64,000 nucleotides of DNA from Alphaproteobacteria bacterium (GCA_965237415.1 CBDEFM010000002.1:1312001-1376000); one strand, 5' to 3'; counted from the stretch's first letter, positions 15,073-56,600 are shown. Made by a program: numbers and translations. Notes: generated by a model from the sequence alone, not told the origin.

Positions 15073-15073
15073 C

Positions 15074-16939: not shown

Positions 16940-17127
16940 AGCCCTGTCATTCTTCGTGAAGCCCGGACGAGCCGGTGAGATTCACTTACTCCCACAGGCC
17001 CCCGATGTCTAGTGGTCCGACCTTTTGGTTATGGTTCGAGCCGAGATTTCAGCGATATCCCGACGCGGAATCGGCTCTGCGCAAGTCTCGCGCCCCTCAC
17101 CCGGCCTGCGGGCGGGGCGAGCAAGGG

Positions 17128-18450: not shown

Positions 18451-18620
18451 GTCCCCCCTCGTCTCGTCGGCGCGCACTATGCCAGCGATGAGGGGGAGTT
18501 TGAATGGTTTTCCGCATGGCTTCAGACCCAAGCGGCATACCGCTTTATCCGAGCCTCTTCCCTGTTCGGGCGCGCCGGCGCACCATAGGATTGCAGCGGG
18601 CCGTCAGGGGAGCGAACGCC

Positions 18621-19109: not shown

Positions 19110-19140
19110 GCAGCAGCCGGGCGGCAGCGCCCCCGGGGCG

Positions 19141-35395: not shown

Positions 35396-37468
35396 TCAGA
35401 AGGCCTCCAGGATGAAGTTGCCGCCGGCGCTCAGCCGGGTTCGCGTGCCGGGGTCGACCACGATCGTGGTGGTCGGCTCCTCGACGATGGCGGGCCCCTC
35501 GATCACGGCGCCGGGGCTCAGGTTGCGGCCGAGGTAGATCGGGGTCTCGATTCGCGAACCGCCACCGAAATAGGCGGGCCGGCGGCTGTCCGGCTCCGGC
35601 ACCCCCGCGGCGGCCTCGCTCGTGGGCGGCCGGGGCGCCTCGTCGAGGCCGACGGAGAGCCGCCCCTTCCAGTTCAGGCATTCGAGGATGCTGTCCGGAT
35701 CGCGCACGGCGAAGACCTGCTCGTGGGTGGCATGAAAGCGCTCGACCAGGGCGGCGACGTCATGCTCGTTCTCGAAGCGCTCCATTGGCAGCGCCACATC
35801 GAGCTCCCACACCTGGAACAGATATCGCGCCTCGACGAAGCGCTCGATGCGCGTGGTCCCGAGCCCGCGCTCGCCGAGGGTCGCGGCGAAGCGCTCCAGC
35901 TCGGCGTCGATGGCCGCGAGCACGGCGTTCACCCCCTCGAAATCGAAGCCGACGGAGCGCGTGACCATGCTGGCCGAATGCTCGTGAACCACGTCCGAGA
36001 CCTGCATCCCGCAGGCGCTGAGCACCGCGGCGGTGCGCGGCAAAATCACCCGCTCGCAGCCGAGCTCGCCGGCAATCGCCATGGCGCCGAGGCCGGCCGC
36101 GCCGCCGCCCGCGACGAGTGTGCATTCGCGGGGATTGAAGCCTTCGGTGACGGTGATGTCCTGAATCGCCTTGATCATCAGCTCGTTGGCGAGGCTCATG
36201 ATGGCATGCGCGCCGTCGTCGAGGGATTTGCCGAGTTGGTCGGCGAGCGTGCCCACCGCGCGTCTGGCCGCCTCCGTGTCGAGGGCGAGACGCCCGCCGA
36301 GGAAGTAGTCGGGGTCGAGATAGCCTAAGAGCAGCGCCGCATCGGTCACCGTGGGCTCGGTGCCGCCCGTGCCGTAGCAGGCGGGCCCCGGCACGGCGCC
36401 GGCGCTGCGCGGGCCCACCCTGAGCAGGCCGCCCGGATCGATCCAGGCGATCGAACCGCCGCCGGCGCCGATGCTGCGCACGTCCACGGAGGAGATCGAC
36501 AGGATATGGCCGATCCACTGGCCGCCGATCCAGGTCTCGCGGGTTTGCTTCACCGCGCCGTCCCGCACCAGGCTCACGTCGAAGGTGGTGCCGCCCGCAT
36601 CGCAGACGATCACGTCGTCGCCGAAGCCCTCCATCTGCGAATAGGTCAGCGCCGCGACCGGCGCCATGGCCGGGCCGGACTTGACCGTGTGGATGGGCCG
36701 CGCGATCAGCTCGTCGACGTGCATGCAGCCGCCGACCGAGGTGCTCACCAGAATCTCGCCCTTGCATCCGGCTTCGCGGAGATCGTCCTCCATGCCGCGC
36801 AGATGCGCCTGCATCAGCGGCTTGAGCGAGGCGTCGATGGCGGTGGCGGATGCGCGCCGGTATTCGCGCACAATGGGGATCAGCCGGTGCGAGAGGGTGT
36901 AGGGGACGCCCGGCAGAACCTCCTCGATCAGCGCGGCAAGCGCCTGCTCGTGCGCGGGGTTGGCGACCGCCCACAATAGGCAGACTGCGACCGCCTCGAA
37001 ACCGCGCTCGCCCACGAGTTCCAAGACCGCGCGCGCCTGCTCGCGATCCAGCGGCGTCACCACGCCGCCCTCGGCATCGATCCGCTCGTCGATCTCGAAG
37101 GTGTGAGCCTGCGGGATGTAGGGGTCCGGGTAATCGGTCTCGAAGTCGTGGACCCCGTGCTTGCCGCCCTCCTTCAGCACCAGGATGTCGGGGAAGCCGG
37201 CGGTGACCAGGAACGCGGTCTTGGCGACCGCGCCCTGGACGATCGCGTTGGTGGCGCGCGTGGTCCCGTAGATGAGCAGATCGGTCTCGCCGAGCAGCTC
37301 GGGCAGGCTCAGGCCCAGCTGCTCGGCCGCGTTCTCCAGCGCGCCCCGCATGCCGACGAAGATGCGATCAGGCGTGGTCGGCGCCTTGCCGACCACCTCC
37401 CGCCCGTCTCCGCCGGCCACCACATCGGTAAAGGTGCCGCCGGTATCGACGGAGATGCGAAGCCCCAC
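35396..37468 (-). CDS. Hydantoinase A/oxoprolinase family protein
   Basis: VDTGGTFTD, SGPA, D.GGTTFDV, GAGGGSIA, GP.SAGA.PGPACY. Confidence 0.92.
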   Translation of the reverse strand: MGLRISVDTGGTFTDVVAGGDGREVVGKAPTTPDRIFVGMRGALENAAEQLGLSLPELLGETDLLIYGTTRATNAIVQGAVAKTAFLVTAGFPDILVLKEGGKHGVHDFETDYPDPYIPQAHTFEIDERIDAEGGVVTPLDREQARAVLELVGERGFEAVAVCLLWAVANPAHEQALAALIEEVLPGVPYTLSHRLIPIVREYRRASATAIDASLKPLMQAHLRGMEDDLREAGCKGEILVSTSVGGCMHVDELIARPIHTVKSGPAMAPVAALTYSQMEGFGDDVIVCDAGGTTFDVSLVRDGAVKQTRETWIGGQWIGHILSISSVDVRSIGAGGGSIAWIDPGGLLRVGPRSAGAVPGPACYGTGGTEPTVTDAALLLGYLDPDYFLGGRLALDTEAARRAVGTLADQLGKSLDDGAHAIMSLANELMIKAIQDITVTEGFNPRECTLVAGGGAAGLGAMAIAGELGCERVILPRTAAVLSACGMQVSDVVHEHSASMVTRSVGFDFEGVNAVLAAIDAELERFAATLGERGLGTTRIERFVEARYLFQVWELDVALPMERFENEHDVAALVERFHATHEQVFAVRDPDSILECLNWKGRLSVGLDEAPRPPTSEAAAGVPEPDSRRPAYFGGGSRIETPIYLGRNLSPGAVIEGPAIVEEPTTTIVVDPGTRTRLSAGGNFILEAF

Positions 37469-38891: not shown

Positions 38892-39084
38892 GCTGCGTCT
38901 CCATGTTGAGGGTTGGCAAGCCGCCGCAATGGTCGGACCGCACGGCAGCGGGGCTGCGCCAGCCTAAGCCAGGCCGCCCTGCGCAGCAACGGTGCGCGAG
39001 GCCCGGCGGCTATCGAGCGTTTCGGCCCAGGATGAGCCCCCTGGCCCTCCCTTTGTTAATCGCCTGACCCTAGCCAATCGCCGT

Positions 39085-39672
39085 TTACTCAGGGAGATCC
39101 AGGCGAACGAGCCTCCACTTGTAGGTGGGATTGTTCCCCCAAGTATAATCTCCTCCAATCCAAACCCCAAGTTCTGGATCATAAAATCCCCAGCCCTTGG
39201 CACGATGGCCGACTCCCTTTTCTGTGAATGCAATTTTGAATAACTGCCGCGTGCCAAGAATAGTCTTCACCCTCTTGAACGCAACAACTTCGTAGGTTGC
39301 ATTCAAGTTCCAGTCTCGTTCAGAATAGTTGACAGTTGTCTTATTGCTCACCTTAAGCGGGAAGATCTTGTCCACTGTCGCCGTATCGTAGGACCTCTTC
39401 TTTCCCTCAGAACTTATGCTTTCTGCTATGCCTTTATATATGTGCCACGTGGCGCTCTTAAGTTGAGAGGAGCGGGCACCCCTGACGTGGACTTTGCCGC
39501 CATCGACTGCGACGACCTCCCAGGATGCGCCGAAGTTGTAAGTGGCCTTGGTGCCGACCGGGGGCGCATTCCACGTTCCGTCCGGTTCGTCCTCGGCGAC
39601 AGCATTCGCGAACGGCGCCCCCAACATGACGAGCGCACACAACACGATCTTTCCGAATCTAATCAGTCGCAT
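39085..39672 (-). CDS. Hypothetical secreted protein (low GC)
   Basis: Signal peptide MRLIRFGKIVLCALVMLGAPFANAVA, GGAG RBS, beta-rich body; no family recognised. Confidence 0.6.
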   Translation of the reverse strand: MRLIRFGKIVLCALVMLGAPFANAVAEDEPDGTWNAPPVGTKATYNFGASWEVVAVDGGKVHVRGARSSQLKSATWHIYKGIAESISSEGKKRSYDTATVDKIFPLKVSNKTTVNYSERDWNLNATYEVVAFKRVKTILGTRQLFKIAFTEKGVGHRAKGWGFYDPELGVWIGGDYTWGNNPTYKWRLVRLDLPE

Positions 39673-39892
39673 GGTTGCTCCCCCTCCCCATTTTGGCGTC
39701 TGCTTCGCGAGTTTCCCTGACGGTCGGGGAAACTCGAAAGCGCGGCGCCTCCGTTGTCGTCGCCACAACATCGTCATCGGAACGCGATGCGGCGACGCGA
39801 TTCATGGTGTTTCCCATTATGGTGTCTCTCTCGACGCTCTCAATCCCGCCGTCGCCGGAGCAACCGCCGACCCGTGCGGCGTGGATGTCAGT

Positions 39893-40025
39893 CTAGTCAT
39901 CTGGCACTGAAGTTGAGATCATTATAGATTAGCAGTGCTGCCACACTAAGTCGCTCTATTGTCGAAGAATTTAGTCGTTCAACATAGTTAGCTTTATGTG
40001 GCGAACTTCAGATTCAGGTGACTAG
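39893..40025. mobile_element. MITE of about 130 bp with terminal inverted repeats and CTAG at both ends
   Basis: CTAGTCATCTGGCACTGAAGTT ... AACTTCAGATTCAGGTGACTAG around an AT-rich core with no ORF. Confidence 0.75.
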
Positions 40026-40737
40026 GTTCTTGATCGGCCTGCCCTCGGTCCAATCGAAGGTCCCGCTATCGCGTTCCCGCACGGCCTGTTTCCAGCCGAC
40101 CTCTTCTGGCCCTCTTCTTGAAATTCAGGCCCTCCGGCCAATGGCGCGTGATGCCGTCGAAGATCGTGGCGAGCCGCTGGGTGTTCATAAGCCCGGTGGC
40201 CTCGATCGCCTGATTGATGACCAGCTTTTGCATGGCCAGCTGGTTGATCGGCACGCTCGCCATGCGCCGGGCGAGGACTTCCACCTCGTCATCCAGCGCG
40301 GCGGCGGGAACGGCCTTCAGCACGAGGCCCATGTCGGCGGCCTCCCTGCCGGTGATCTTGTCGCCGGTGAAGAGCATACGCTTCGCCCTTTCCGGCCCCA
40401 GACGGTAGACCCACATGGCGGTCGTCGGGCAGCCCCAGACCCGCGCCGGCATGTAGCCGATCTCGGTGTCCTCGGCCATGAGAGGCAGGTCGGCGCAAAG
40501 CGCGATGTCGGAGCCGCCGGCGAGCGCGAGGCCATGCACCTTGCAGATCACGGGCTTCAGCGCCCGCCAGAGCGCCATGAAGTGCTGGGTGTTCGCCCAC
40601 ATGAAGGCGTAGTCCTGGATCGGGTCCCAGGGCATCTCCTGGCCCACGTACTCGCCATCGCTTCCGCCGGTGTCTCCGCTCGCGTAGTGCGTGAGGTCGT
40701 AGCCGGCACAGAAGGCCCGCCCGGCGCCCGAGAGCAC
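40014..40737 (-). pseudogene. Crotonase/enoyl-CoA hydratase pseudogene (5' truncated, frameshifted, MITE in the 3' end)
   Basis: SGAGRAFCAGYDL, KPVICKVHG.ALAGGSDIALCAD; N-terminus missing; frameshift near 40105 separates ...FKKRA from EEVGWKQAVRERD. Confidence 0.8.
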
Positions 40738-40892
40738 CCGCTTCCTGTCGCTAAAGGAGGTCGCTTGCCTGCATCGGATCGCCCTATCCCAGGACGGCTC
40801 TCGGCAGGCAGCGTCTTGGAATACCGCCTTGCCGGCCCTCCCGGCGGTCTCTACTGTGCCACTCGATTTGACGATCTCGGGACGCGTGGACA

Positions 40893-41696
40893 GTGGTCGG
40901 CATAGAACAAGCCTTCAATGATACGGAAAGAGCCGCCGAAGCGGCGCGGAAGTCTGCGGCAAGCGTAGTGTCGCAGGCGAGGGCGTTAGCGAAAGCCGCG
41001 CAAACCGGCAACATTGCGGTGATCAAGCGCTGCCAGGAGAACCTGAAGGACGCGGTGACGGCGCTCCGGCAAGAGGTTGCAAACGTCGGCTCGTGCTGGC
41101 CGTTCACGGACGAGGAAGAACTGCAACTCTTCCAGGAACGCTACGCCGACGCACTCAAGGCCACCGCAGCGGAAAAGGGCTTGAAAATGCACGAACAAGA
41201 CGGGCTCTTGATGTCCTACCCGTCTATCGTGCGTATACTTGTAGCAGAGCGTGCTGTGAGAGTTGATCGCAAAAGGATACCCACGGTAAGGCCATCGTAT
41301 CTTGTCGGCCTTCTCCTCCAAAATCAGAAAAAATCCAGCAGTTTTTCGTCGGAGCGCTTTCTCGAGTCCTTGTATAAGGTCTACAGAGATATCTTGAGCG
41401 GAGCATCCGAAGAGCTGCCGCTGGCCGAAGGCGGGCGTGTCGTACCCTTGATCAGGATCTACAATCTGATGACGGCGTTGCCGGGTGCCGCCCGTGAGTA
41501 CGACCGAAGCGACTTCGCGCGGGATCTGTACATCCTCGAATCCCAGGGGCCTCGCCGGACCAAGAGCGGCGCTGCGGTCTCTTTTCCGTCATCGACCGGA
41601 ACCCGGCGGCGTTCGAGCGACCTTTTCTCCTTCATCGGACCTAATGGCAATAACGCCGAATATTACGGGATCCGATTCAGCGAGAGTGGCGCATGA
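40893..41696 (+). CDS. Hypothetical protein (helical N-terminus, basic C-terminal domain), first gene of the ATPase-helicase operon
   Basis: Intact 267-aa ORF; ATGA overlap with the next gene; no family recognised. Confidence 0.75.
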   Translation: MVGIEQAFNDTERAAEAARKSAASVVSQARALAKAAQTGNIAVIKRCQENLKDAVTALRQEVANVGSCWPFTDEEELQLFQERYADALKATAAEKGLKMHEQDGLLMSYPSIVRILVAERAVRVDRKRIPTVRPSYLVGLLLQNQKKSSSFSSERFLESLYKVYRDILSGASEELPLAEGGRVVPLIRIYNLMTALPGAAREYDRSDFARDLYILESQGPRRTKSGAAVSFPSSTGTRRRSSDLFSFIGPNGNNAEYYGIRFSESGA

Positions 41697-42652
41697 CCAA
41701 CACAATCGCCATCGACGAGTGGCTCGACGTCGTCGACCGCGAGTATCTGTCGACGTTCATCAAGGATGGTGGCGCCGCCGTCAAGTTCGCGGTCGCTGGC
41801 GAGGAAAGACGGTCGATACTCCGTGAGGCGATGAAGCCCCGTTGCGAAGAGCTCGACTATCTGTTCGTGGCGCTGGATGCGATCACGTGTCGGGTTCACA
41901 TGCCTCAGGACATCTTCTTCGCACTGGCATCGCAACTCGATTGGCGTCTCCTGGCTCGTCGACTGATTCTGGGTCTGTTGGCGGATAAAGACTACCGTGT
42001 CGAGGGAATCGACCCGGGGGATGCCGTCAACATTATCGGTGCCGTCGCGCGCACCAACGATCTGGATTCTCAGTTCGTCCTTTCAGAGTTGCGCTTGATG
42101 CTGCAAGACGAAGTCTTCAAGAATCCGAACATGGCACGCGCCTTTCGCGTCGCAATGACTCATCTCTGCCGGATGGAAAGGGAGACGCCGACGCGGGGGG
42201 ATTATGCCGGACAGCCGCTGCTCGATTGGCTCACCGGAACCAACACGCGTATCGGCAACGTTCGTCCCTTCCAGGTCCATACCCCCATTAATCGCTCGAC
42301 AGCTCGCTACTTCATCGAGTCGACGCTCTACTGGGTACGCCGTGCAGGGTATTCGGGCACGGTGATTCTACTCGACAATGCCCGCGTCACCGTGCCGCGC
42401 AACCCGCGCGATGGGCAGCGCTACTACACCCGGGCCATGACGATGGATCACTACGAGGTGCTTCGGGAGTTCATCGACGATGTGGATCGGTTGTCGGGAT
42501 CGCTGATGATAGTGGTTACGGATGAGACGTTCGTCGACGAACATTCCGCGAGGGGTTGGGGCATATATGCCGCCCTGCGCACCAGGGTGATGGACGACGT
42601 CCGCGACAGGAATATCGTCAACCCGGTCGCCGCCCTGGTGCGGCTCTCGTAG
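41693..42652 (+). CDS. BrxD/DUF2791-like P-loop protein with degenerate Walker motifs
   Basis: YL..FIKDGGAAVKFAV, GY.G.VILLD, YEVLREFIDD, YAALRTRV resemble DUF2791; no GxGKS/T and Walker B reads DN. Confidence 0.7.
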   Translation: MTNTIAIDEWLDVVDREYLSTFIKDGGAAVKFAVAGEERRSILREAMKPRCEELDYLFVALDAITCRVHMPQDIFFALASQLDWRLLARRLILGLLADKDYRVEGIDPGDAVNIIGAVARTNDLDSQFVLSELRLMLQDEVFKNPNMARAFRVAMTHLCRMERETPTRGDYAGQPLLDWLTGTNTRIGNVRPFQVHTPINRSTARYFIESTLYWVRRAGYSGTVILLDNARVTVPRNPRDGQRYYTRAMTMDHYEVLREFIDDVDRLSGSLMIVVTDETFVDEHSARGWGIYAALRTRVMDDVRDRNIVNPVAALVRLS

Positions 42653-42664
42653 AAGGCATTGTGC

Positions 42665-43939
42665 ATGGTAGCCAATCCACCCAGCTATCTTACCGCCCGG
42701 CTGGCGGTGGAAGCTCTGCGAAACGGTGTCCCGAACAAGGAGGCCGTGCGTGAACTCGGCTGCAATCAGCCGCGTGTCGAACAGCGTTTCGTCCTAATGC
42801 TGGAGGGAACGGAGAACGTCCAGGACCGGCCAGGCTCGGCGCCGGGGATGCTTGTGTCGGGTGACTTCGGTGCGGGCAAGTCTCATCTCCTGGAACACCT
42901 GGAACACCTTGCTCTCTCCCGGAACTTTGTTTGCAGCAGAGTCGCAATCAGCAAGGAAACGCCTCTGTACGACTTGGCAAAGGTGTTCTCTTCGGCGATG
43001 GAAAACGGGCGGATACCGGACCGGGGAGGCCGGTTCATCGAAGAGCTTTCGCTCGCCATCGACCAGAAGTCTGCAAGACACGAGGCCTTCTCACGGTGGG
43101 CCGACGAGGCAGCGTCCAATGGCCTTCTGAGTCCGATTTTTCCTGCAAGCTTGCGTGTGTACGAACGCTCAGACGACTTCGAGCTGAATAGCGATATCGA
43201 ATCCTTTTGGGCGGGAGACAGGATTCAGATTGCCAAGTTAAGGGCCGGGCTCAGGCAGATCGGTGAGGCAGGCACCTACCGCTTCCGTGCGCCAAGGGCT
43301 GCGGACCTGCCACCGCAGCGCTTGCGTTTTGCGGTCGAACTCATCAAGGGCGTCGGTTATCGCGGGTGGGTCGTCCTGTTGGACGAGATCGAATTGATGG
43401 GGTCTTACTCGATATTGCAGCGCGGACGCTCTTATGCCGAGGTCGCGCGCTGGATGGGGCTCGCCCAGGGAGAGAGCTATCCTGGACTGATCGTGATCGG
43501 CGCGGTCACGGAAGACTTCGCCGCCGCCATCATCAGCCCGGACGGACAAAAGAAGGATCGAGACTACGTTCGACCAAGGCTGGAGCAAAACGCGAGATAT
43601 GCCGCTCTCGGTGCCCGCGCCGAGAGCGGCATGCGGCTGCTGGAGCAGGGCTGCGTAGCGCTAGACCCTCCCAGCGACGACGACGTGAGGGTGACCATGG
43701 AGACGTTGCGCCGCCTGTACCGAAGGGCCTACAGCTGGGAACCGCCGGTTCACGAGGCAACCGCAGGGGGCGCGGGTTTCCAGGGGCGGATGCGCTACAA
43801 GGTCCGCACTGCAATCAACGAGTGGGATCTGCGCCGGCTGCACGCCACCTACCAGCCGGACACGGAAATCGAACGGTTTGCCACTCCATACGCAGAGAAC
43901 GCCGATCTGGAGCACGAGGCCAGGGACGATTCGGCGTAA
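42665..43939 (+). CDS. BrxD/DUF2791-like P-loop ATPase
   Basis: AVEALRNGVP N-terminus, SGDFGAGKSH Walker A, GYRGWVVLLDEIE Walker B. Confidence 0.8.
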   Translation: MVANPPSYLTARLAVEALRNGVPNKEAVRELGCNQPRVEQRFVLMLEGTENVQDRPGSAPGMLVSGDFGAGKSHLLEHLEHLALSRNFVCSRVAISKETPLYDLAKVFSSAMENGRIPDRGGRFIEELSLAIDQKSARHEAFSRWADEAASNGLLSPIFPASLRVYERSDDFELNSDIESFWAGDRIQIAKLRAGLRQIGEAGTYRFRAPRAADLPPQRLRFAVELIKGVGYRGWVVLLDEIELMGSYSILQRGRSYAEVARWMGLAQGESYPGLIVIGAVTEDFAAAIISPDGQKKDRDYVRPRLEQNARYAALGARAESGMRLLEQGCVALDPPSDDDVRVTMETLRRLYRRAYSWEPPVHEATAGGAGFQGRMRYKVRTAINEWDLRRLHATYQPDTEIERFATPYAENADLEHEARDDSA

Positions 43940-43974
43940 GTACCGCTCCGTGCGAGCCTGGGCGAGGTGTTGAC

Positions 43975-46059
43975 GTGCCCATCCCGTTCCAAGACACGAA
44001 CACTGTCGGACATCCCGATGCGGTGGCCTGGCTGCGTATCGTCGAAGACCACGCGGGCCAGAATATTCGCGCGGCTCTGTTCGAAACCACGGTTCGGGGT
44101 GGGCCGCTGGGCTTCAGCTTCGCCCGAACGGCGCGTCACGATGGGGCGGGCAGGTGCGCGGTGTCGTCCCTGGCTCGCTCCCTGTTCGGCGCATCCACAG
44201 CGACCCCGGCGCTGCTGTTCGCCGCAGCGGAAGAAGTGCCGCCGCAGGTCTTCGATTGCGTCAAGGCCGGCCCACCCTGTTGTCGCGTTCGTGCACCAGC
44301 GCTGCCCGGCGCGAGCACCGTGTCGAACGGGCGGCCCGACGACACTCACAGACGGATGCTCTGGGCGACTGGTCCGCCGGCACCGGCATCCGCTGCCGCT
44401 GCGGTCCTCGGCGAGGTCATGGAGCGGGACGATCCGTTCGAACCGCTGGAGCGAGCGGCCAGGGGCTTGATGGAGGCGTTCGCCGACCCGCAGGTCCGGG
44501 CGTTGACCGAAGTCCCCGGTTTGAGAATGGTAATGACGCTGCCGCCGCGCTCCGATCGCACCGGGAAGCAGGCAGCGCGCGGCACCGCAACGTCCACAGC
44601 CCCGCCTGCGCCTTGGCCGGGAGAGGGCGCGGAACGCGGCCTTGCCGAACGGTTGTGGGCGGTTCTGGCCGTGCCTCGCTCCCGCAGGCCCACCCCAACG
44701 CCAGCCCGGCGGCTGGAGTGGCCCGGCGAACTCATGCCGTTCCAGCGAGACGGTGTCGGAGCCTTGATCGGGATGGAACGATTGTTGCTGTCAGATGATA
44801 TGGGCCTAGGAAAAACGGTACAGGCTGTTGCGGCACTGCGAATTCTCAGGGCGCGGGGAGAGATCGGGTCGTGCCTCGTGGTGGCTCCCGCCAGCGTGCT
44901 CGACCAGTGGCGGCGGGAGATCGCGCGCTGGGCGCCGGACATGAGCGCGATCATCATCCGCGGCTCGGCGAACGATCGGGCGTGGCAGTGGAGGGCCAAT
45001 ACGGATGTCACGCTGGTCAGCTACGACGTCCTGCGCTGGGACGCGGCAATCCTCACGACGCTCCGGGCTTCCAGGGGTGCGTGGGACGTGGTCGTTCTCG
45101 ATGAAGCGCAGAGAATCAAGAACCGCAACGACACCAGTGAGGCTGCGAAGAGCATTTCGAGGGTGCGGTCCTGGGCGTTGACCGGCACGCCCATAGAGAA
45201 CCACGAGGAAGAATTGGCGTCCATCATGGAGTTCGTCGATCACGATGAGGGGACGCCACGCAAACGCTACCGGCCCGGCACTACGTTACTTTTGCGCCAT
45301 AGCGAATTGCAGCTTCGGCGCAAGAAGGCCGACGTGCTGGATGATCTGCCGCCCAAGCTGGAGACCAAGTTGACGATCCCGTTGCACCGGGATCAGCGTG
45401 AGAGCTACGACCGGGCCGAGCGCGAGGGTATCGTCTATCTCAAGTCTCTTGGCGCGGAAGTCGGTGTCGGACACGTGCTGGAGCTGATCACTCGCCTCAA
45501 GCAAATCTGTAACGTCGATCCCAGAACGGGAGAGTCTAGCAAGCTGGACGACATTGGCGACAGACTGCAGACCTTGACGGCTCAGGGTTACAAGGCCCTG
45601 GTCTTCTCCCAGTACACCAGCGACACGTCGGGTGTGGCAGCAGCGGCAAGGCATCTGCGGGCGTTCAATCCGTTGAGCCTGACCGGCAGCGTACCGCCGG
45701 AGGAGCGCGCCGCTCTGATCGATCGGTTCAAGACAGGCGAGACTCACATGGCGCTGATCATATCGTTGCGGGCGGGCGGCCTAGGCCTCAATTTGCAGGA
45801 GGCATCCTACGTATTCCACCTGGACCGCTGGTGGAACCCGGCCGTGGAGCGGCAGGCGGAGGACCGGACCCACCGCCTGGGCCAGACAGTCAAGGTGAAT
45901 GTGATCAAGTATACCTGCGAGGATACCATCGAAGAGCGTATCGAACGCATCCTGGAACGGAAGCAGGCGTTGTTCGACAAGCTGGTCGACGACGTGTCGC
46001 TGGACCTTTCGACGCGAATGAGCCGCGAGGAGTTGTTGGGGCTTTTCGGTCTGGATTAG
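43975..46059 (+). CDS. SNF2-family helicase/ATPase with an uncharacterised ~230-aa N-terminal domain
   Basis: LSDDMGLGKT, VLDEAQRIKN, LTGTPIEN, ALVFSQY, AGGLGLNL, WWNPAVE.QA.DR.HR.GQ; GTG start after GAGGTG. Confidence 0.9.
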   Translation: MPIPFQDTNTVGHPDAVAWLRIVEDHAGQNIRAALFETTVRGGPLGFSFARTARHDGAGRCAVSSLARSLFGASTATPALLFAAAEEVPPQVFDCVKAGPPCCRVRAPALPGASTVSNGRPDDTHRRMLWATGPPAPASAAAAVLGEVMERDDPFEPLERAARGLMEAFADPQVRALTEVPGLRMVMTLPPRSDRTGKQAARGTATSTAPPAPWPGEGAERGLAERLWAVLAVPRSRRPTPTPARRLEWPGELMPFQRDGVGALIGMERLLLSDDMGLGKTVQAVAALRILRARGEIGSCLVVAPASVLDQWRREIARWAPDMSAIIIRGSANDRAWQWRANTDVTLVSYDVLRWDAAILTTLRASRGAWDVVVLDEAQRIKNRNDTSEAAKSISRVRSWALTGTPIENHEEELASIMEFVDHDEGTPRKRYRPGTTLLLRHSELQLRRKKADVLDDLPPKLETKLTIPLHRDQRESYDRAEREGIVYLKSLGAEVGVGHVLELITRLKQICNVDPRTGESSKLDDIGDRLQTLTAQGYKALVFSQYTSDTSGVAAAARHLRAFNPLSLTGSVPPEERAALIDRFKTGETHMALIISLRAGGLGLNLQEASYVFHLDRWWNPAVERQAEDRTHRLGQTVKVNVIKYTCEDTIEERIERILERKQALFDKLVDDVSLDLSTRMSREELLGLFGLD

Positions 46060-46084
46060 CCGATAACGCTTCGACTGCAGAGGC

Positions 46085-46393
46085 ATGAGCATCGACGCGC
46101 AACTCCTGGGAAGGCTCTTCGCCAGCGATTTCCAGAGCGAGTCTGTTGCCTAGCCCCCGATTGGCAGGCCATTGGCGACGCTGCTCCCGAAGGCCTTGAA
46201 GCCGCGCTCGGGGCAATACTCGAGTGATTCACAGTTGCCGGATCGCCCAACGAGACTCAGACCGAGGACGACCTGATCTAGCCCGTGCTCGAGCGGCTCG
46301 GCTGGCCGGCAACGTTGCGACAGTAGAACCTGATCGCAACTGGCCGAGAGAACGTGCCGGACGGTCGGCTGTTCGCGGACGATGCTGCAATGC
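46085..46393 (+). pseudogene. Decayed N-terminus of a probable Type IIG (Eco57I-like) restriction-modification enzyme
   Basis: Manual translation through stops: MSIDAQLLGRLFASDF...PNETQTEDDLI*PVLERLGWPATLRQ*NL...VPDGRLFADD; 4 stops and a frameshift; cut by IS21. Confidence 0.6.
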
Positions 46394-46504
46394 TGTTAAC
46401 GGCGGAGGAATAATGCTCCACGCGGAGCGATCGGACGGTCCGGTCGCGGCGGCGCAAAAATGCGCCAACCATGGTCCTTTGTCGGTTGCGACGAGGGGCG
46501 GGGG

Positions 46505-47154
46505 ATGTACGGCGTGGAGCTCTATGCGGCGGTTCGACTGGCGGTTGTCGACGAGGGTTTGAGCCATCACGAGGCGGGCCGTCGGTTCGGCATCGACCGT
46601 CGCACGGTGAAGAAGATGCTGAGCTACTCGGCGCCGCCGGGCTACCGCCGGACGAAGCCGGTCAGGCGGCCCAAGCTGGACGGGTTCACCGGCATCGTCG
46701 ACGCGATCCTGGAGGCGGACACGGATCCGGATGTGCCGCGCAAGCAGCGCCACACGGCGCATCGGATCTTCGAGCGGCTGCGGGACGAGCACGGGTTCAC
46801 CGGCGGCTATACCATCCAGACCGTGTGAAAACGTCATTGAATTCAGATTTTCGAGTAAGTCTGCTTGATTTCTGAAAAGTGCAGCCTGCTAAGTCATTGA
46901 TTTCATTAACACTGAAAATTCAACCAATGGGCTGAAATCACATTTCGAGCGATTCTCCGACGTTTTGACACAGTCTGCATCGTGAAGGACTATGTGCGTT
47001 CCCGGCGGCAATCGACGCGCGAGGCCTTCGTTCCACTGCATCACCCGCCGGGCCATGCCCAGGTCGACTTCGGCGAGGCGGTGGTGGAGCTGCGGGGGCA
47101 GCGGGAGAAGGTCGCCTTCTTCTGCCTGATCCTGCCCCATTCCAATGTCTGGTT
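46505..47154 (+). pseudogene. istA: IS21 transposase IstA fragment, interrupted by a MITE and truncated by a second IS21
   Basis: PRKQRHTAHRIFERLRDEHGFTGGYTI | VKDYVR...AQVDFGEA. Confidence 0.85.
46817..46977. mobile_element. 161-bp MITE with 19-bp terminal inverted repeats and a 4-bp target duplication (CATC)
   Basis: CAGACCGTGTGAAAACGTC ... GACGTTTTGACACAGTCTG (17/19 match); CATC at 46813-46816 and 46978-46981; excision restores istA GYTIVKDY. Confidence 0.9.
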
Positions 47155-47356: not shown

Positions 47357-48098
47357 TCAGGAGCGGTTCTTGAAGCGCCAGCTCTCGTTGCCGGTCTCGA
47401 TGATCTCGCAATGGTGGGTGAGACGATCGAGCAGGGCTGTGGTCATCTTGGGGTCGCCGAAGACCGAGGGCCACTCACCGAAGGCGAGGTTGGTGGTGAT
47501 GACGATCGAGGTTCGCTCGTAGAGCCGGCTCATGAGGTGGAAGAGCAGCTGCCCGCCGGCCTGAGCGAAGGGCAGGTAGCCGAGCTCGTCGAGGATGACG
47601 AGGTCGCGGCGGACGAGCTGGTCTGCGGTGCGGCCCTGGCGTCCGGCGCGGAGCTCGGCCTCGAGGTGGTTGACCAGGTCGACGACGTTGTAGCAGCGGC
47701 CGCGGGCACCCTTGCGGATGCAGGAGCGCGCGATGGCGACGGCGAGATGGGTCTTTCCGGTACCGGTGCCGCCGACCAGGACGATGTTGCGCTTGCCCTC
47801 GAGGAAGCCGCCGCCGGCGAGCTCCTGGATCAGGGGCTCGTTGACCTGCGAGGCGGCGAAGTCGAAGTCGGCCAGTTCCTTCGCCGTCGGCAGCTTGGCG
47901 GAGGCCATCTGGTATTTGATGGAGCGCGCCGTCTTGTCGGCGATCTCGACCTGCAGCAGCGTACCGATGATCTGCTGCACCGGATGGCGGCGCTTGAGCC
48001 CCCCTCGGCGTACATGTGGCGAGGATGTCGTCATAGGCGGCGCGCATGCCCGCGAGCTTCAGCGCCGCCATCATCGCCAGCACATCATGACGCTCCAT
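47357..48098 (-). pseudogene. istB: IS21 helper ATPase IstB, frameshifted near its 5' end
   Basis: [21 protein letters not shown] in one frame and GLKRRH...[11 protein letters not shown]...LDELGY in another; small insertion near 48000-48016. Confidence 0.8.
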
Positions 48099-49599
48099 GA
48101 CCGGCCTCCCTCAGGCTGTCATAGCGCTGGCAATCGGCAACCGGCTTGTGGCGAAGCTGCAGGCCCTCGGGCGTCGGGATCGCCGCCGGCGGTGCCGGCT
48201 GGCGCTGCCGGGCGAGGATGTTGAACACCACGTCGGCGCTGCAGGCGCCGCAGTCGAGCGTCTCGGCACAGGCCGCCTCAACCGCCTCCAGTCCGTCCTC
48301 CAGCACCGCCGCGAGCACCTTGACGAACTGCCGGTCGCCGTCGTTGTGGCCCGCGAGCCGGGTCCGCAGACGGCCGAGCGCGTTGGGCAGCTTCCAGTCC
48401 TTGAAGGGCGCGCCGTTCCTCAGCGCCCCGGGCTTCCTCGTCAGGATCGGCACGTAATGCCACGGATCGTAGGCGATCTGGCCGCGTCCGAAGCTGCGGG
48501 GATGCTCGGCGACGATCTCGCCGTCCTGGCGGATGACGATCCGATCGGCATAGGCCCGCACGTCCACCGGCCGGCCGACGGCGCGGGCCGCGACGCTGTA
48601 CTGGTTGTTGTCGAAGCGCACCAGACAGGTCTTGGAAACCGCTACCTCAGTGGCATGGAAGCCGTCGAAGGGGCCGCGGTACGCCATCAGGAAGGGCCGC
48701 TCCTCCTCGAACACCTGCGACACCGTCTTGCCCTCGATCGTCGGATGCGGATGCTTCTTGGCGTCCTCGATGCACCGATCCATCAGCCACTCGTTGATCT
48801 CGGCGTAGGAGCGGCCCCGCGGGCTGGGCACGAACAGGCGGCCGCGAACGTCACCCACCTGCTTCTCCACCTGCCCCTTCTCCCAGCCAGCTCCTGGCGT
48901 GCACGCCACAGGCTCCACCAGATGGTGCGAACACATCTCCTGGAAGCGGCGGTTGTAGTCCCGCTTCTTGCCCACGAACACCGTGCTCACCGCCGTCTTC
49001 ATGTTGTCGTAGATGCCCCGCCGGCAGACCCCGCCGAAGAGGCGGAAGGCACGTTCATGTGCCTCGAACACCATCTCCTGGCTCTCGCGGGGAAAGATCT
49101 GGACCAGATACATTCGGCTGTGGCACAGCCGCATGTGCGCCGCCTTCACCCTGGTCGTCGCACCCGCCAGACGCGCGTACTCATGGCTCCAGTCGAACTG
49201 GTAGGCCTCGCCCGGATCGAAGATCAGCGGCACAAAGGCCTGCGACTGCGACAACAGCCGCCACCGGCGCCGCCAGGTCCTGGCATAGCGGCGCACCGCG
49301 TCATAGCCGCCGCCATAGCCCAGAGCCCCAAGGTCTTCATGAATCCGCAGAAGAGACAGCCGATCCTTGCGTGCCTTCTTCTCGTTGGCCTTCAGCTGGC
49401 GCTCGAGTTCCTCCACCCACGGCCCCAGCTTCGGCATCGGCTGGATCTTGCGCTCGTAGCTGAACGAGGTCTCATCGCCCCGCACCACCTTGCGCACCGT
49501 GTTCTTCGAAACCCTCAAATCCCGGGCGATCTTCTTGATCGGAACGCCCCTCACCAGATGATCCAGACGGATCTTCGCGATCGTTTCCACAACCAGCAT
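48085..49599 (-). CDS. istA: IS21 transposase IstA
   Basis: PGEAYQFDWS, YDNMKTAV, GWEKGQVE, VRFDNNQYSV, KPGALRNGAPF. Confidence 0.93.
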   Translation of the reverse strand: MLVVETIAKIRLDHLVRGVPIKKIARDLRVSKNTVRKVVRGDETSFSYERKIQPMPKLGPWVEELERQLKANEKKARKDRLSLLRIHEDLGALGYGGGYDAVRRYARTWRRRWRLLSQSQAFVPLIFDPGEAYQFDWSHEYARLAGATTRVKAAHMRLCHSRMYLVQIFPRESQEMVFEAHERAFRLFGGVCRRGIYDNMKTAVSTVFVGKKRDYNRRFQEMCSHHLVEPVACTPGAGWEKGQVEKQVGDVRGRLFVPSPRGRSYAEINEWLMDRCIEDAKKHPHPTIEGKTVSQVFEEERPFLMAYRGPFDGFHATEVAVSKTCLVRFDNNQYSVAARAVGRPVDVRAYADRIVIRQDGEIVAEHPRSFGRGQIAYDPWHYVPILTRKPGALRNGAPFKDWKLPNALGRLRTRLAGHNDGDRQFVKVLAAVLEDGLEAVEAACAETLDCGACSADVVFNILARQRQPAPPAAIPTPEGLQLRHKPVADCQRYDSLREAGHGAS

Positions 49600-49749
49600 C
49601 TCCCCCCCACCCCGTCCGTCCAAACGACGAGGTGTGTTCATGGACACAAACCATGGGGGGTCAAATTTGGACGCCGATCACCCCCAACAGGGGGTCAATT
49701 TTCCACGCTTAACAACATCTGATCCGCCCAGCGCCGGGGGGGGCGACGG

Positions 49750-50094: not shown

Positions 50095-50202
50095 CGGCCT
50101 GAACGGCCAAATCGCCCCGCCCGCCTGCTTGCGGCCCGCCGGGGGCTGGGCCACTGTGGCCGCCGCCGGCCTATGGCCGAGTCTGGAGAGGAGGTCCCGG
50201 CC

Positions 50203-51891
50203 ATGGACATGGTCACCATGAACATCATCGATTCGACGATGGTGTCCATCTGCCGCGAGATGGGCATCACGATGATGAAGACCTCCTATTCGACCATCTT
50301 CAACGAAGGCATGGACTTCACCTGCGGCCTCGGCAACACGCGGGGCGACATGATCGCGGTCGCCGAGTTCAACCCCTCGCAGATCGGCGGCATGCCGCTC
50401 GTCCTCCAGACCTCGGCCCAGGAAATCCCCCACGATCAGGTCGAGGAAGGCGATGTGATCGTCCACAACGACCCCTACCGGGGCGGCATGCACACGCCCG
50501 AGCACACCTTCATGAAGCCGGTCTTCTACGAGGGCGAGCTCGTGGGCTACGCCATCGCCATCGGCCATGTCGCGGAGGTGGGCGGCATGGTGCCGGGCGG
50601 CTTCGCCGGCGAGGCCACGGAGATCTTCCACGAGGGCATGCGCGTCCCCCCGGTCAAGATCAAGGAGCGGGGAGAGGACGTGGTCGAGGTGTGGAAGCTC
50701 ATGCTCGCGAACTACCGCACCCCGCGCGCCAACTACGGCGATTTTCGGGCGCTCATCAGCGCCGTCGACGTGGGTGCGGCCAGGCTCGAGGCGCTGATCG
50801 AGAAGTACGGCCCGGAAACCTTCCACACGACCGTCGACGATCTGATGGACTACGCGGAAGCCCGCATGCGGGCGGAGCTCTCGGCCTTTCGCGACGGGGT
50901 CTACAGCTTCGAGGACTACATGGAGGACGACGGCATCGAGGACCGGCCGTACAAGATCCACGTCGATGTCCACGTGCAGGGCGACGAGGTGGTGGTCGAT
51001 TACGGCGGCACGGACAGCCAGGCGCGGGGCCCGATCAATGCCGTGCTCTCGGTCGCCTGGTCATCGGCCTACAACGCGATCCTGCACCTCACCGACCCCT
51101 CGATCCCCAAGAACTCCGGCTGCTTCCGCCCGATCAAGATCGTGGCGCCGGGCGGCTCCCTGGTGAACGCGGACTATCCGGCGACCTGCGTCGGCGGCAA
51201 CACCGAGACCCACATCCGCATCGCCTACACGATCATCGCGGCGCTCTCGCAATGTGTGCCGGATCGCGCCTTCGCCACCGACGCCGGCACCCACAGCAAC
51301 TTCCTCTTCGGCGCAACCGATCCGCGCTCGGGCGACTACGTGGTCTGCTACGACTTCACTTGCGCCGCCTGGGGCGGGCGGTCCTTCGCCGACGGCAACG
51401 AGGTCATCAACTGCATCAACGGCAACTCGCGGATGGTGCCAATCGAGGTCTTCGAGGTGCGCTATCCGTGGATGATCGAGGAATACGCGCTGCAGCCGGA
51501 CACCGCCGGCCCCGGCCGTTTCCGGGGGGCGCATGCGCTCGCCAAGGTGCTGCGGTGCATGGACACGGAAATCACGGTGAGCTCGGTCTCCGACCGTCAC
51601 AAGATGCGCCCCTGGGGGCTGCTCGGCGGTGGGCCCGGGGCGACGGGCGGCCTCTTCTACCGGGCTGCGGGGAGCGACGACTGGCAACCCTTCACCGAGG
51701 CCTTCGGCAAGACCTCGCCCAGCAAGTTCGCCAATACGACGATCTGCCCCGGCGATCGCGTCCGCCTGATCGCGCCGGGCGCGGGCGGCTACGGCAATGT
51801 CGCCGAGCGCGACCCCGCCATGATCGCGGAAGACCTGAGCGAAGGCTGGATCACGCCGGAAGGCGCGCGGCGCGACTACGGCTACGGCTAG
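50203..51891 (+). CDS. Hydantoinase B/oxoprolinase family protein
   Basis: NDPYRGGMHTPE, H.AEVGG..PG, GPGRFRG, GAGGYG...ERD; GAGGAGG RBS. Confidence 0.9.
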   Translation: MDMVTMNIIDSTMVSICREMGITMMKTSYSTIFNEGMDFTCGLGNTRGDMIAVAEFNPSQIGGMPLVLQTSAQEIPHDQVEEGDVIVHNDPYRGGMHTPEHTFMKPVFYEGELVGYAIAIGHVAEVGGMVPGGFAGEATEIFHEGMRVPPVKIKERGEDVVEVWKLMLANYRTPRANYGDFRALISAVDVGAARLEALIEKYGPETFHTTVDDLMDYAEARMRAELSAFRDGVYSFEDYMEDDGIEDRPYKIHVDVHVQGDEVVVDYGGTDSQARGPINAVLSVAWSSAYNAILHLTDPSIPKNSGCFRPIKIVAPGGSLVNADYPATCVGGNTETHIRIAYTIIAALSQCVPDRAFATDAGTHSNFLFGATDPRSGDYVVCYDFTCAAWGGRSFADGNEVINCINGNSRMVPIEVFEVRYPWMIEEYALQPDTAGPGRFRGAHALAKVLRCMDTEITVSSVSDRHKMRPWGLLGGGPGATGGLFYRAAGSDDWQPFTEAFGKTSPSKFANTTICPGDRVRLIAPGAGGYGNVAERDPAMIAEDLSEGWITPEGARRDYGYG

Positions 51892-53629: not shown

Positions 53630-56600
53630 TTACTCGGCGGCCTCCGGGAGCGGTTCGGCCCGCTCCGCCGCCGGTCCGTAGCCGCCGCCGGTCGGGGTCT
53701 GCAACACGAAAACGTCGCCCGGCCCGACAGACGTGCCCTCCCGCCCCGAAAGCTCAGTCACCGTGCCGTCCGCCCGCTCGATCCAGTTGCGGCCGCACTG
53801 GCCGGGCTCGCCGCCCGCCATGCCGTAAGGCGGCACGATGCGGTGATTCGAGACGATAACGAGCTCCATGTCTTCGAGGAAGCGGATGCGCCGGTCGCAG
53901 CCCGAGCCGCCGACATAGGCACCCGCGCCGCCGGAGCCGTGCCGGACGGAGAAGCTGACCAGCATCACCGGGTAGCGCCATTCCAGCACCTCGGGGTCGG
54001 TGAGGCGCGTGTTGGTCATGTGCGTGTGCACGGCCGAGGTGCCGTCGAAGCCCGGGCCCGCGCCGGAGCCGCCGCACACCGTCTCGTAGTACTGGTGCGT
54101 GTCGTTGCCGAAGATGACGTTGTTCATCGTCCCCTGGCTCGCCGCGAGCACGCCGAGGGCGCCGAACAGCGCGTCCGTCACCGCCTGGCTGGTTTCGGTG
54201 TTGCCGGCGACGACGGCGGCCGGATATTCCGGCGCCAGCATGCAGCCCTTTGGGATGACGATGTTGATGGGCTTCAGGCAGCCCTCGTTCAGCGGGATGT
54301 TGTCGTCCACCAGGGCGCGGAAGACGTAGAGCACGGCCGAGCGGCAGACCGCCGACGGCGCGTTGAAGTTGGTCGGCCGCTGCGGGCTGGTGCCGGTGAA
54401 GTCGACGGTCGCTTCGCGCTTCTCCTTGTCGAAGCTGATCTTCACCCTGATCGTGCCGCCTTCGTCGAGCGGATAGGCGAACTCGCCGTCCGCCATCACG
54501 TCGATGACGCGGCGGACCTGCTCCTCGGCATTGTCCTGGACGTGGCGCATGTAGGCGTGGACCACATCGAGGCCGAACTGCTCGATCATGCGGTGGACCT
54601 CGCCGACGCCCCTGTTGCCGGCGGCGATCTGCGCCTTGAGATCGGCGACGTTGTGGTCGGGCTGGCGCGCCGGGTAGCGGCCCGCGGCGAGATGCGCGCG
54701 TAGTTTGTCCTCCAGGAAGACGCCGGCATCCACCAGCTTGAAGTTGTCGAAGAGGATGCCTTCCTCCTCCACGGTCCGGCTGTCCGGCGGCGTGGAGCCC
54801 GGCGTGCGCCCGCCGATATCGGCGTGGTGGCCGCGGCTCGCGACGAAGAACAGGATCTCCTCCCCCGCCATGTCGAAGATGGGGGTGATGACCGTGACGT
54901 CCGGCAGGTGGGTACCGCCGTTGTAGGGCGCGTTCACCACGTAGACATCGCCCGGCTTCAGGGCGCCGCGGTTCTCCTGCAGCACGGTGCGGACCGATTC
55001 GCCCATCGAGCCGAGATGGATCGGGATGTGCGGCGCGTTGGCGACCAGATTGCCGTCGGGGTCGAAGAGCGCGCAGGAGAAATCGAGCCGCTCCTTGATG
55101 TTCACGGAATAGGCGGTGTTCTCCAGCGTCACACCCATCTGCTCGGCGATCGACATGAAGAGATTGTTGAACACCTCGAGCATGACCGGGTCGCACTCGG
55201 TGCCCACCGCGAAGGTCCGCTCGAGAGGGACGACGCGGGTGAGAACCAGGTGGCTCTTCGCCGTGAGTTCGGCTTGCCAGCCGGGCTCGACGACGGTCGT
55301 GGCGGTCTGCTCGCGGACGATGGCGGGGCCGGTGACGCGGTTGCCGGGCACGAGCACGTCCCGGTCATAGACCGGCGTCTCGTGCTCACGCCCGTCCATG
55401 TGCGCCGTCACCAGAGCAAGACGCGGCACGTCGTCGGGTGTCGCCCGGTCGCTGCGGTCCGCCTCCTGTGTCTCCGCCATCACGCCGATGCCTTCGACCG
55501 CTGCGGCTTCGACGATCAGCCTCTTCTCCGGCATGATGAAGCCGTAGTGCCGGTGGTGCGCGGCCTCGAAGCGGGCCGTCATCTCCGCGGGCGTCCCGAA
55601 CTCGATCGCGTGCGGCGTGTCGCTCCCCTCGTAGCGGATGTGCGCGCGGCGGATGATCTCGATCCGTTCGTCGGGAATGTCCTGTTCCGTGAGTTCCGTT
55701 TCGACCTGGGCGGCGAGATCGTCGAGCGCCGCCGTAAGCTGCGACATCAGCGCATCGTCGAGGGGCGCTTCGACCGCCTTCTCCCTGAGCGCCCCGATGT
55801 CGGCGAGACCCATGCCGTAGGCGGAGAGAACGCCGGCGAAGGGGTGGATCAGGACCGTGGTCATGCCCAGCGCATCCGCCACCAGGCAGGCGTGCTGACC
55901 GCCCGCGCCGCCGAAGCAGTTGAGCGTGTAGCCGGTCACGTCGTAGCCGCGCTGCACGGAGATCTTCTTGATCGCGTTGGCCATGTTCTCGACCGCGATC
56001 TTGAGGAAGCCGGCGGCGACTTCCACCGGCGTGCGCTCGTCGCCGGTAGTCTCCCGTATCTCCACCGCGAGGGCCGCGAATTTATCGCGCACCGTGGCGG
56101 CATCCAGCGGCTCGTCCTGGCCGGGGCCGAAGACATGGGGAAAGAACGCCGGCTGCAGCGTGCCCAGCATGACGTTGCAGTCGGTGACGCAAAGCGGCCC
56201 GCCGCGCCGGTAGCTGGCAGGGCCGGGATCGGCGCCCGCGGACTCAGGCCCGACGCGATAGCGCGCGCCATCGAAGAAGCAGATCGAGCCGCCGCCCGCC
56301 GCCACCGTGTGAATCAGCATCATCGGTGCGCGCATGCGCACGCCCGCCACCAGGGTCTCGAAGGCGCGCTCGTATTCGCCGTCGTAGTGCGCGACGTCCG
56401 TCGACGTGCCGCCCATGTCGAAGGAGATGATCTTGTCGAAGCCGGCCTGCCCCGCCGTCTCCACCGCGCCGACGATGCCGCCGGCCGGGCCGCTCAAGAT
56501 GGCGTCCTTGCCCTGGAAGAGCGTGGCGTCGGTGAGGCCCCCGCTCGACTGCATGAACATGAGCCGGGTGCCGCCCAGCTCCGCCGCCACCTGATCGACA

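Follow-up and report, generated by a model that had tools for sequence, protein, structure and literature searches.

In a stretch of 64,000 nucleotides (nt) from an alphaproteobacterial genome (Alphaproteobacteria bacterium, GCA_965237415.1 CBDEFM010000002.1:1312001-1376000), which we call the window and whose coordinates we use throughout, four intact co-oriented genes, named pA, pB, pC and pD in their order, span 40893-46059 on the plus strand. The original prediction had taken them for a new defence module consisting of a novel protein, two BrxD/DUF2791-like ATPases and an SNF2 helicase, with a dead type IIG restriction-modification (RM) gene as a possible further part. We find that the four genes form a self-contained, distinct and conserved module, and that this cassette probably belongs with the Shango anti-phage system as an undescribed relative. 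On balance, and with some caution, we favour the view that it is a horizontally mobile ATPase-helicase module, a third relative of Shango and of BrxD-BrxHI, that would block invaders; a role in defence is something we infer from family ties, patchy distribution and some of the neighbours. New here are the constant core formed by pA, pB and pC, the physical link of this triad to Shango-like operons, and the predicted fold of the pD N-terminus, which resembles endonuclease V (EndoV) and PIWI.

Calling of open reading frames (ORFs) bore out the predicted layout, with an ATGA overlap between the first two genes and gaps of 12 and 35 base pairs (bp) before the third and fourth. The gap of 12 nt holds for the ATG at 42665, the likely start of pC, from which pC residues are numbered below. 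A GAGG lies eight bases 5´ of the pD start. A longer open frame for pD from 43366 was dropped as a high-G+C artefact, because homologues align from residue 1 of the protein that starts at 43975. The cassette is single-copy in its own genome, and a scan for promoters and terminators gave chance-level results only.

Since the order of the genes carries the argument for a module, we first describe its conservation. Relatives of pA have a constant length of ~265 amino acids (aa) and gave 448 matches in a database clustered at 90% identity. A pA profile searched against 1.84 billion representatives matched 791, 549 and 230 clusters at 50% identity (E<=1e-3, E<=1e-10 and E<=1e-30, respectively). Scanning species-representative genomes yielded 189 pA relatives, of which 80 loci were kept, all from metagenome-assembled genomes (MAGs), and the gene order around them was determined by tblastn and all-against-all ORF clustering. 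The triad pA-pB-pC occurs in one order and on one strand in 79 of the 80 loci, the exception (L038) stopping at a contig edge, and pD comes next, in the same order and on the same strand, in 74. This order is far beyond chance, being kept at such frequencies. Inserts displace pD in L077 and L079. It is absent from L029, L054, L066, L071 and L075, and because the neighbours there are unrelated (housekeeping genes or genes of no known function), we read these five cases as loss of pD. No conserved fifth gene was found across the 80 loci.

The individual cassettes appear to be in varied states of decay. Inserts or long gaps between pC and pD were seen in L077 (13356-16013), L079 (5289-6083), L060, L068 and L073, and the pD frame is short in L034, L057 and L076; in L034 a second ORF follows directly (14666-15109), and L057 ends at a contig edge.

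According to their record titles, the 80 loci represent at least six phyla: 21 are alphaproteobacterial, 11 gammaproteobacterial, 29 from Chloroflexota (15 Dehalococcoidia, 13 Caldilineaceae and one other), nine from Acidobacteriota and seven from Binatia, with one each from Longimicrobiales, Thermodesulfobacteriota and an unclassified source. Within the order to which the window belongs, pA was present in 2 of 49 genomes (G000 and G048). In a FastTree phylogeny of pB plus pC from 77 loci and the window (L038, L018 and L075, whose matches were missing or short, were left out), the phylum label changes at least nine times, a count that errors in MAG binning could inflate, where the minimum possible is five. 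Acidobacteriota, Gemmatimonadota and Binatia rows are nested within Proteobacteria. As far as the tree can tell, this is the pattern of horizontal spread of the cassette.

The window was also compared with G048, a sister genome from its own genus and the source of locus L001. By blastn, the window and G048 share a block at 40813-46388 (plus strand) with 88.8% identity over 5588 bp, which takes in the cassette together with 80 bp before it and ~300 bp from the start of the gene that follows. The left flank of the window is 95-98% identical to G048, where it lies at 5.43 megabases (Mb), and the right flank matches at 95-97% but is found at 3.22 Mb in inverted orientation, whereas the G048 cassette occupies a non-homologous chromosomal place at 2.69 Mb. 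In the segment compared (34997-56594), homology with G048 ends at 40738 on the left and the backbone picks up again at 49718 on the right, with an IS21 insertion sequence (IS) exactly at this right breakpoint. With left flank, cassette and right flank at three separate places in G048, the window spans a rearrangement junction. Divergence from G048 is much greater in the cassette (88.8% identity) than in the backbone (95-98%), which suggests that the cassette was acquired separately or exchanged. The ratios of nonsynonymous to synonymous substitution (dN/dS) between the window and L001 were 0.18, 0.11, 0.12 and 0.25 for pA, pB, pC and pD, indicating purifying selection on all four genes.

The two ATPase-like proteins were examined next. 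Both surpass the gathering cut-off of 22.2 bits for PF10923 (BrxC_BrxD, formerly DUF2791), pB with 42 bits (7.4e-11) and pC with 63.8 bits (1.8e-17), so the predicted pair of DUF2791-like paralogues stood; in the genome of origin, PF10923 is confined to these two genes. Among 24 sequences, pC keeps invariant G69, G71, K72 and S73 of a GxGKS Walker A motif and D240 and E241 of an LLDE Walker B motif, and has the look of an active AAA+ ATPase. In pB there is no GK[ST], and LLDN (D228 N229) replaces LLDE, for which reason we predict it to be a pseudo-ATPase. The two proteins are too diverged for hhalign, which aligned just the Walker B stretch (probability 13.6%), so that their paralogy rests on the separate PF10923 matches. 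By contrast, hhalign aligned pC to a Shango-type PF10923 ATPase over 308 columns (probability 90%, E 1.4e-6). Against the PADLOC model for SngB, pC matched through its P-loop region only (3.9e-7, 27.5 bits), and we regard it, judging by these alignments, as a divergent paralogue rather than an orthologue of SngB.

For pD, the assignment to SNF2 helicases was confirmed by matches to SNF2-rel_dom (PF00176, residues 270-513, 4.6e-44) and Helicase_C (531-636); the score against the DEAD model, 24 bits, was under the cut-off. GLGKT (G277-T281, with K280) and DEAQ (376-379) are invariant in 24 sequences. The N-terminal domain of ~195 residues gave an AlphaFold2 (AF2) model of medium confidence, with a predicted local distance difference test (pLDDT) value of 75.6 across the whole model and, for most of the folded blocks, 78-95. 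A Foldseek search of the Protein Data Bank (PDB) with this model returned EndoV (4xpu_B, 4e-4; 3ga2, 1e-3), then the UvrC C-terminal domain and many Argonaute/PIWI chains, with E values from 4e-4 to 1e-2, probabilities up to 1.0 and template-modelling (TM) scores of 0.28-0.37; an Atlas search with the same domain was uninformative (score at most 0.77). In the RNase H fold of EndoV, the UvrC C-terminal domain and PIWI, the first catalytic Asp is expected in strand 1. The invariant residues of the pD domain are W19, R21, L35, P44, L45, F47, L66, L70, L80, W130, E156 and R160, and strand 1 holds W19 and R21 instead of any conserved acidic residue. We therefore read the domain as probably non-catalytic and, with moderate confidence, as a binding module rather than a nuclease.

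The first protein, pA, has no Pfam match over cut-off and no match in PADLOC v2 or NCBIfam. Its AF2 model (pLDDT 86.6) shows a long helical hairpin at the N-terminus, after which come alpha/beta domains, a fold without a match in the PDB at E<0.5. A search of PDB sequences with the pA profile gave chance-level matches only, and an Atlas search returned unnamed clusters only. Across 40 diverse family members, G39, P110, R133, P134, Y203, F208 and D211 are invariant. We considered pA as a PD-(D/E)xK nuclease (E101, D103, D125, K127) and dropped this candidate, as the residues are not conserved in the wider family. No longer, fused forms of pA were found, which is weak evidence.

A more distant branch of the family reveals which part of the cassette is constant. 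Metagenome contigs were scanned with an alignment of pA relatives ~35% identical to the pA of the window, giving 490 relatives, and the 80 loci kept were searched with hidden Markov models (HMMs) built from our own alignments. Here pB follows pA in all 57 loci with room for it and pC follows in all 39 whose contigs extend far enough, while pD was found in 18 of the 35 loci having at least 700 nt after pC and was missing from the other 17. In six of these 17 (L118, L139, L151, L153, L154 and L155), a divergent operon immediately upstream of pA has three products: a TerB_N/TerB_C protein of 716-756 aa, a PF10923 ATPase of full length that scores 490-495 bits, and a helicase of the DEAD/DEAH type; L128 and L149 carry partial versions. 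This composition matches that of Shango in the descriptions drawn on here (Johnson et al., 2023, PMC10250203; Millman et al., 2022, preprint). Other triads adjoin a divergent SNF2 gene (L105), a gene for an SMC-like ABC ATPase (L158) or a NERD-UvrD gene (L133). Because pD is present in only 18 of 35 distant loci and other helicases adjoin the triad, the constant core consists of pA, pB and pC, while the helicase partner can be exchanged.

These ties invite a closer comparison with Shango, in which a TerB-like protein (SngA), an ATPase (SngB) and a DEAD/DEAH helicase (SngC) protect against phages, as stated in the sections of Johnson et al. (2023; PMC10250203) concerned with the system and, for the gene composition, of the Millman et al. 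(2022) preprint. Like Shango, the cassette is a compact operon that runs from an accessory protein through a PF10923-type AAA+ ATPase to a superfamily 2 (SF2) helicase and lacks a methyltransferase and any obvious nuclease; its pC aligns to a Shango-type ATPase, and relatives of its triad adjoin complete Shango-like operons. Unlike Shango, it has no TerB domain, pA being unrelated to TerB_N/TerB_C (hhalign of the pA family against a TerB_N/TerB_C protein, probability 0.1%), it has two PF10923 paralogues, one of them apparently dead, in place of one, and its helicase is an SNF2 protein with an EndoV/PIWI-like N-terminus rather than the DEAD/DEAH (Lhr-like) SngC. Nor was a TerB-type protein detected elsewhere in the genome of origin by tblastn with two TerB proteins; PF13208 had no match there, and its control was silent too. 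With TerB lacking and the helicase of SNF2 type, the cassette is not canonical Shango.

The kinship with BrxD and BREX that had been predicted held in part. BrxD is an ORC/Cdc6 AAA+ ATPase tightly linked to BrxHI, for which a role as helicase loader has been proposed, according to those parts of PMC12839542 that deal with it. The cassette shares with BrxD-BrxHI (type 2 Pgl, type 6 BREX) a stand-alone PF10923 ORC/Cdc6-type ATPase tightly linked to an SF2 helicase and can be called a relative; Shango is at least as close, however, and one of the two paralogues is probably a dead ATPase. It differs in having no PglZ, BrxC, PglX or PglW, and in its SNF2 pD where BrxHI is Ski2/Lhr-like. The absence of pglZ and brxC, and with it the distinction from canonical BREX, was upheld at the level of the whole genome: PglZ (PF08665) had no match in this 96% complete assembly, while the control search matched in 2 of 14 genomes, and scores against the equivalogs were far under their cut-offs for BrxC (NF033441, 18.3 bits against 400) and BrxD (NF033438, 44.7 bits for pC and 31.9 for pB against 350). 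The operon contains no PglX methyltransferase; the one gene of methyltransferase type beside it is the MmeI-family stump, and the loci share no conserved methyltransferase adjoining the cassette. Given that the genome has no PglZ, BrxC or further PF10923 gene and that no methyltransferase is conserved, the cassette is not BREX. It also differs from the DUF499-centred "BR" systems mentioned in the same survey (PMC12839542, as far as its account of them goes).

When the four proteins were compared with PADLOC models, as had been proposed, pA gave no match, pC was weakly SngB-like and the helicase core of pD had its best matches in those of ZorD (Zorya), DpdE (Dpd) and DrmD (DISARM), and matched BrxHII too, at 4e-71 to 1e-40. 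The likeness is confined to the core, and the NCBIfam equivalog cut-offs for ZorD, DrmD and DpdE were missed (138 against 1500, 78 against 950 and 64 against 500, respectively). No partner genes of Zorya, Dpd or DISARM were found among the 25 commonest neighbour families, and by these comparisons the cassette is none of the three.

How might such a module act? In the mechanism we propose, pC, as an ORC/Cdc6-type AAA+ ATPase, would pair with its catalytically dead paralogue pB in a heteromeric assembly, with the family-specific pA as adaptor or sensor. The assembly of pA, pB and pC would recognise foreign or abnormal DNA and then load or activate a helicase, here the SNF2 translocase pD, whose non-catalytic EndoV/PIWI-like N-terminus might hold a DNA end, nick or lesion. 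ATP-driven translocation would in turn stop the invader from being replicated or expressed. A complex prediction with pA, pB and pC(1-410) scored 0.00, which counts neither for nor against such an assembly. Any cleavage would fall to host or neighbouring enzymes, since the conserved core is without a nuclease, and the proposal of a loader for pB and pC is made by analogy with the loader role suggested for BrxD in the relevant portion of PMC12839542. More tentatively, and as a possibility that we would not bet on, pA-pB-pC may be a portable sensor and loader, a heteromeric AAA+ pair that plugs into different SF2 motors (the SNF2 protein pD, the Shango DEAD helicase), and could stand for a large nuclease-free class of immune systems that load a translocase on invader DNA.

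Several observations weigh against a defence system of this kind. The case for defence is one of resemblance, and no conserved nuclease or other effector was found in the core: the invariant set of pA does not look catalytic across the wider family, and pD has no nuclease domain, its helicase core ending the protein with no Mrr. PADLOC v2 (2023) has no model for pA. That pB pairs with pC, and pA with one or the other, is a proposal only. By tblastn, pA had no match in 72,556 plasmid and 50,697 phage records, nor had pC in the plasmid records, and a scan of viral contigs returned no relative. The Shango-like proteins of L151, L153, L154 and L155 are identical (100%), which leaves about five independent cases of adjacency, and this adjacency could reflect clustering of separate systems. 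The neighbourhoods also speak with a weak voice. We scanned the closest large ORF flanking each of the 80 genome loci, 75 neighbours upstream and 76 downstream (ORFs called by a greedy longest-ORF heuristic, the 25 commonest families listed per search), and most immediate neighbours were housekeeping genes (dehydrogenases, AMP-binding enzymes, FtsK, penicillin amidase). An HNH_2/type IV-like gene made up 11 of the 75 upstream neighbours, all from one family, Caldilineaceae. Other defence-type matches listed were, upstream, AspBHI-like in two loci and AbiLi, SspH, AriA, MzaA and mad8 in one each, and, downstream, GmrSD_N in 3 of 76, GmrSD_C, PDC-S68 and RecD-like in two each, and type ISP and type IIG in one each. 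As most neighbours are housekeeping genes and the 11 HNH cases fall within one family, the defence-island signal is modest, suggestive rather than strong. Thus, of the conservation proposed by the original prediction, the synteny was found, extending to the distant branch, and the proximity to defence islands only to this modest degree.

The Caldilineaceae gene, which encodes 295 aa and lies co-oriented ~250 bp upstream of pA (L024-L028, L032, L034, L039, L042, L043 and L048), may be a lineage-specific nuclease partner or merely part of a local island. In L025, L027, L039 and L043 the cassette has another HNH-like stretch on its downstream side, which in L025, L027 and L039 is beside or inside a very large ORF (1052-1282 aa).

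The same features could be explained by an accessory module for DNA repair or remodelling, in which the EndoV-like domain finds lesions and the AAA+ pair loads the SNF2 motor to clear stalled complexes, for the benefit of the host genome rather than immunity. The resemblance of the pD N-terminus to EndoV and the UvrC C-terminal domain, the core without nuclease or toxin and the many housekeeping neighbours would all suit this explanation. A repair function sits poorly, however, with a module that is present in just 2 of 49 genomes of its order, crosses phyla and occupies non-homologous places in two genomes of one genus, whose EndoV-like domain has no conserved catalytic set, and whose PF10923 partners are otherwise from BREX and Shango (in the parts of PMC12839542 and PMC10250203 bearing on them); we consider it unlikely, though worth keeping in mind. 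A little less probable again is that the triad has no independent activity and serves as a helper or regulator, modulating a neighbouring helicase system (Shango SngABC, an SNF2 protein, an RM enzyme), with pD as one client among several. Such a role would fit a constant triad with a varying helicase (pD in 18 of 35 distant loci), adjoining complete Shango-like operons, a divergent SNF2 gene (L105) or an SMC-like ATPase (L158). Against it, pD is nearly always present and tightly spaced in the clade of the window (74 of 80), and the genome of origin has neither a TerB protein nor a further PF10923 gene, which suggests that the four genes suffice there.

Two further explanations appear improbable. 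A mobile element might carry the cassette for its own benefit, for instance in maintenance or counter-defence. The horizontal spread of the cassette, the IS21 at the rearrangement junction in the window and the group II intron reverse transcriptase upstream in L001 fit such cargo; yet there was no pA match in plasmid or phage records, no pC match in plasmid records, no relative on viral contigs and no recurrent integrase or transposase neighbour among the listed families, and we give this idea little credence. Least credible to us is that the cassette remains from a BREX system or assists the type IIG enzyme next to it. Here the RM stump 25 nt past pD, the extension of the block shared with the sister genome over the start of this gene and the weak likeness of the intact L001 enzyme to PglX and DrmMI have to be set against a type IIG gene in 1 of 80 loci, the lack of PglZ in the genome, BrxC and BrxD equivalog cut-offs that were widely missed, and the lack of any methyltransferase conserved beside the cassette.

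If the mobile defence module that we favour is what the cassette represents, it would add a family undetectable by PADLOC v2, explain part of the PF10923 genes that surveys have booked under BREX/Pgl, offer a simpler, nuclease-free case of cooperation between an ORC/Cdc6-like ATPase and a helicase in immunity, and, through the triads that adjoin complete Shango operons, indicate a direct functional link. Shango and BrxD-BrxHI are anti-phage modules of unexplained mechanism, and the cassette is a widespread natural variation on their theme, with the ATPase duplicated into a live and a seemingly dead copy, TerB replaced by a protein without a PDB fold match, and the helicase exchangeable; were the sensor-loader idea true, it would hint at how both of them work. 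A metagenome survey of 2016 counted PF10923 under Pgl and, in the part of it used here, reported the family from host-associated metagenomes and not from seawater (PMC5099237). Cassettes with two PF10923 genes and no other Pgl part could inflate such counts. No paper describing this gene set was found by full-text searches of published articles.

Table. Features of the cassette and its surroundings in window coordinates.
Feature	Position	Strand	Remarks
pA	40893-41696	+	GTG start, 267 aa; first gene of the module throughout
pB	41693-42652	+	319 aa; 4-base ATGA overlap with pA
pC	42659/42665-43939	+	426/424 aa; PF10923 AAA+ ATPase
pD	43975-46059	+	GTG start, 694 aa; 35 nt past pC
pD N-terminal domain (~residues 1-195)	43975-44559	+	Predicted RNase H-like fold, EndoV/UvrC-C/PIWI type
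pD linker (variable) and SNF2 core	44560-46059	+	Core reaches the C-terminus
5´ stump of MmeI-family type IIG RM locus	46085-46533	+	Stop at codon 23
Crotonase (enoyl-CoA hydratase) gene without 5´ end	40066-40737	-	ECH_1 profile positions 46-215 of 251
Complete IS21 at right breakpoint	47357-49647	-	IstB_IS21 1.9e-73; rve and Mu-transpos_C_2

The decayed RM-like gene predicted after the fourth ORF is indeed there, as an ORF that begins 25 nt past pD, is soon stopped and is homologous to the start of a type IIG locus in the sister genome, with frame-shifted similarity that extends to ~46533 (49% over 143 aa by tblastn against the L001 ORF, in a different frame). Downstream of the L001 cassette the type IIG gene is intact, with a score of 1463 bits against PADLOC PDLC03627 (REase_MTase_IIG), MmeI_N, hel, Mtase and TRD domains, and weak similarity to PglX and DrmMI. 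Its proposed membership of the module did not survive: because an intact gene is found in only 1 of the 80 genome loci (L001), the type IIG gene is a passenger outside the module and is ruled out as a fifth component. The L001 locus (15203-19356) reads as two overlapping frames, one of 171 aa and one of 1311 aa, pointing to a frameshift or to a small N-terminal gene that is separate. Upstream of the L001 cassette lies a group II intron reverse transcriptase (8481-9791 of L001).

Across 38-48 kilobases (kb) of the window, G+C is 0.60-0.65, compared with 0.67-0.70 in the surroundings, and this low-G+C stretch is set among metabolic genes (hydantoinase A, aminotransferase, hydantoinase B). The truncation of a host crotonase gene was likewise correctly predicted, as the ECH_1 match begins only at profile position 46; the gene is missing its first ~45 codons and marks the left breakpoint. 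At the right breakpoint, the IS21 consists of istB (47357-48034) and istA (48085-49647), both on the minus strand, and integrases or transposases were not recurrent neighbours of the cassette among the families listed for the 80 loci. At ~46471-46875 (plus strand), the translation resembles the N-terminal helix-turn-helix part of an IS21-type IstA transposase (YGVELYAAVRLAVVDEGLSHHEAGRRFGIDRRTV); if so, the type IIG stump would be cut short here by a second IS fragment.

To the left of the crotonase gene, ~1 kb (38997-40027) separates it from the aminotransferase gene, compared with only 365 bp in G048. This segment contains an ORF without a Pfam match (39085-39777, minus strand) and a stretch of ~130 bp (~39893-40025) that matches G048:C1:5342531-5342663 at 87% and parts of which (~32-35 bases) recur at several other G048 sites at 88-91%; the stretch looks like a small repeat or an element resembling a miniature inverted-repeat transposable element (MITE). 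Several hydantoinase/oxoprolinase A and B paralogues surround the island (35396-37468, 50173-51891 and 53630-57274), and genomes of the same genus hold many more copies. Finally, a search of sequencing runs listed four metatranscriptome runs from one study that contain 25-45% of the sampled words, besides several entries with small shares.

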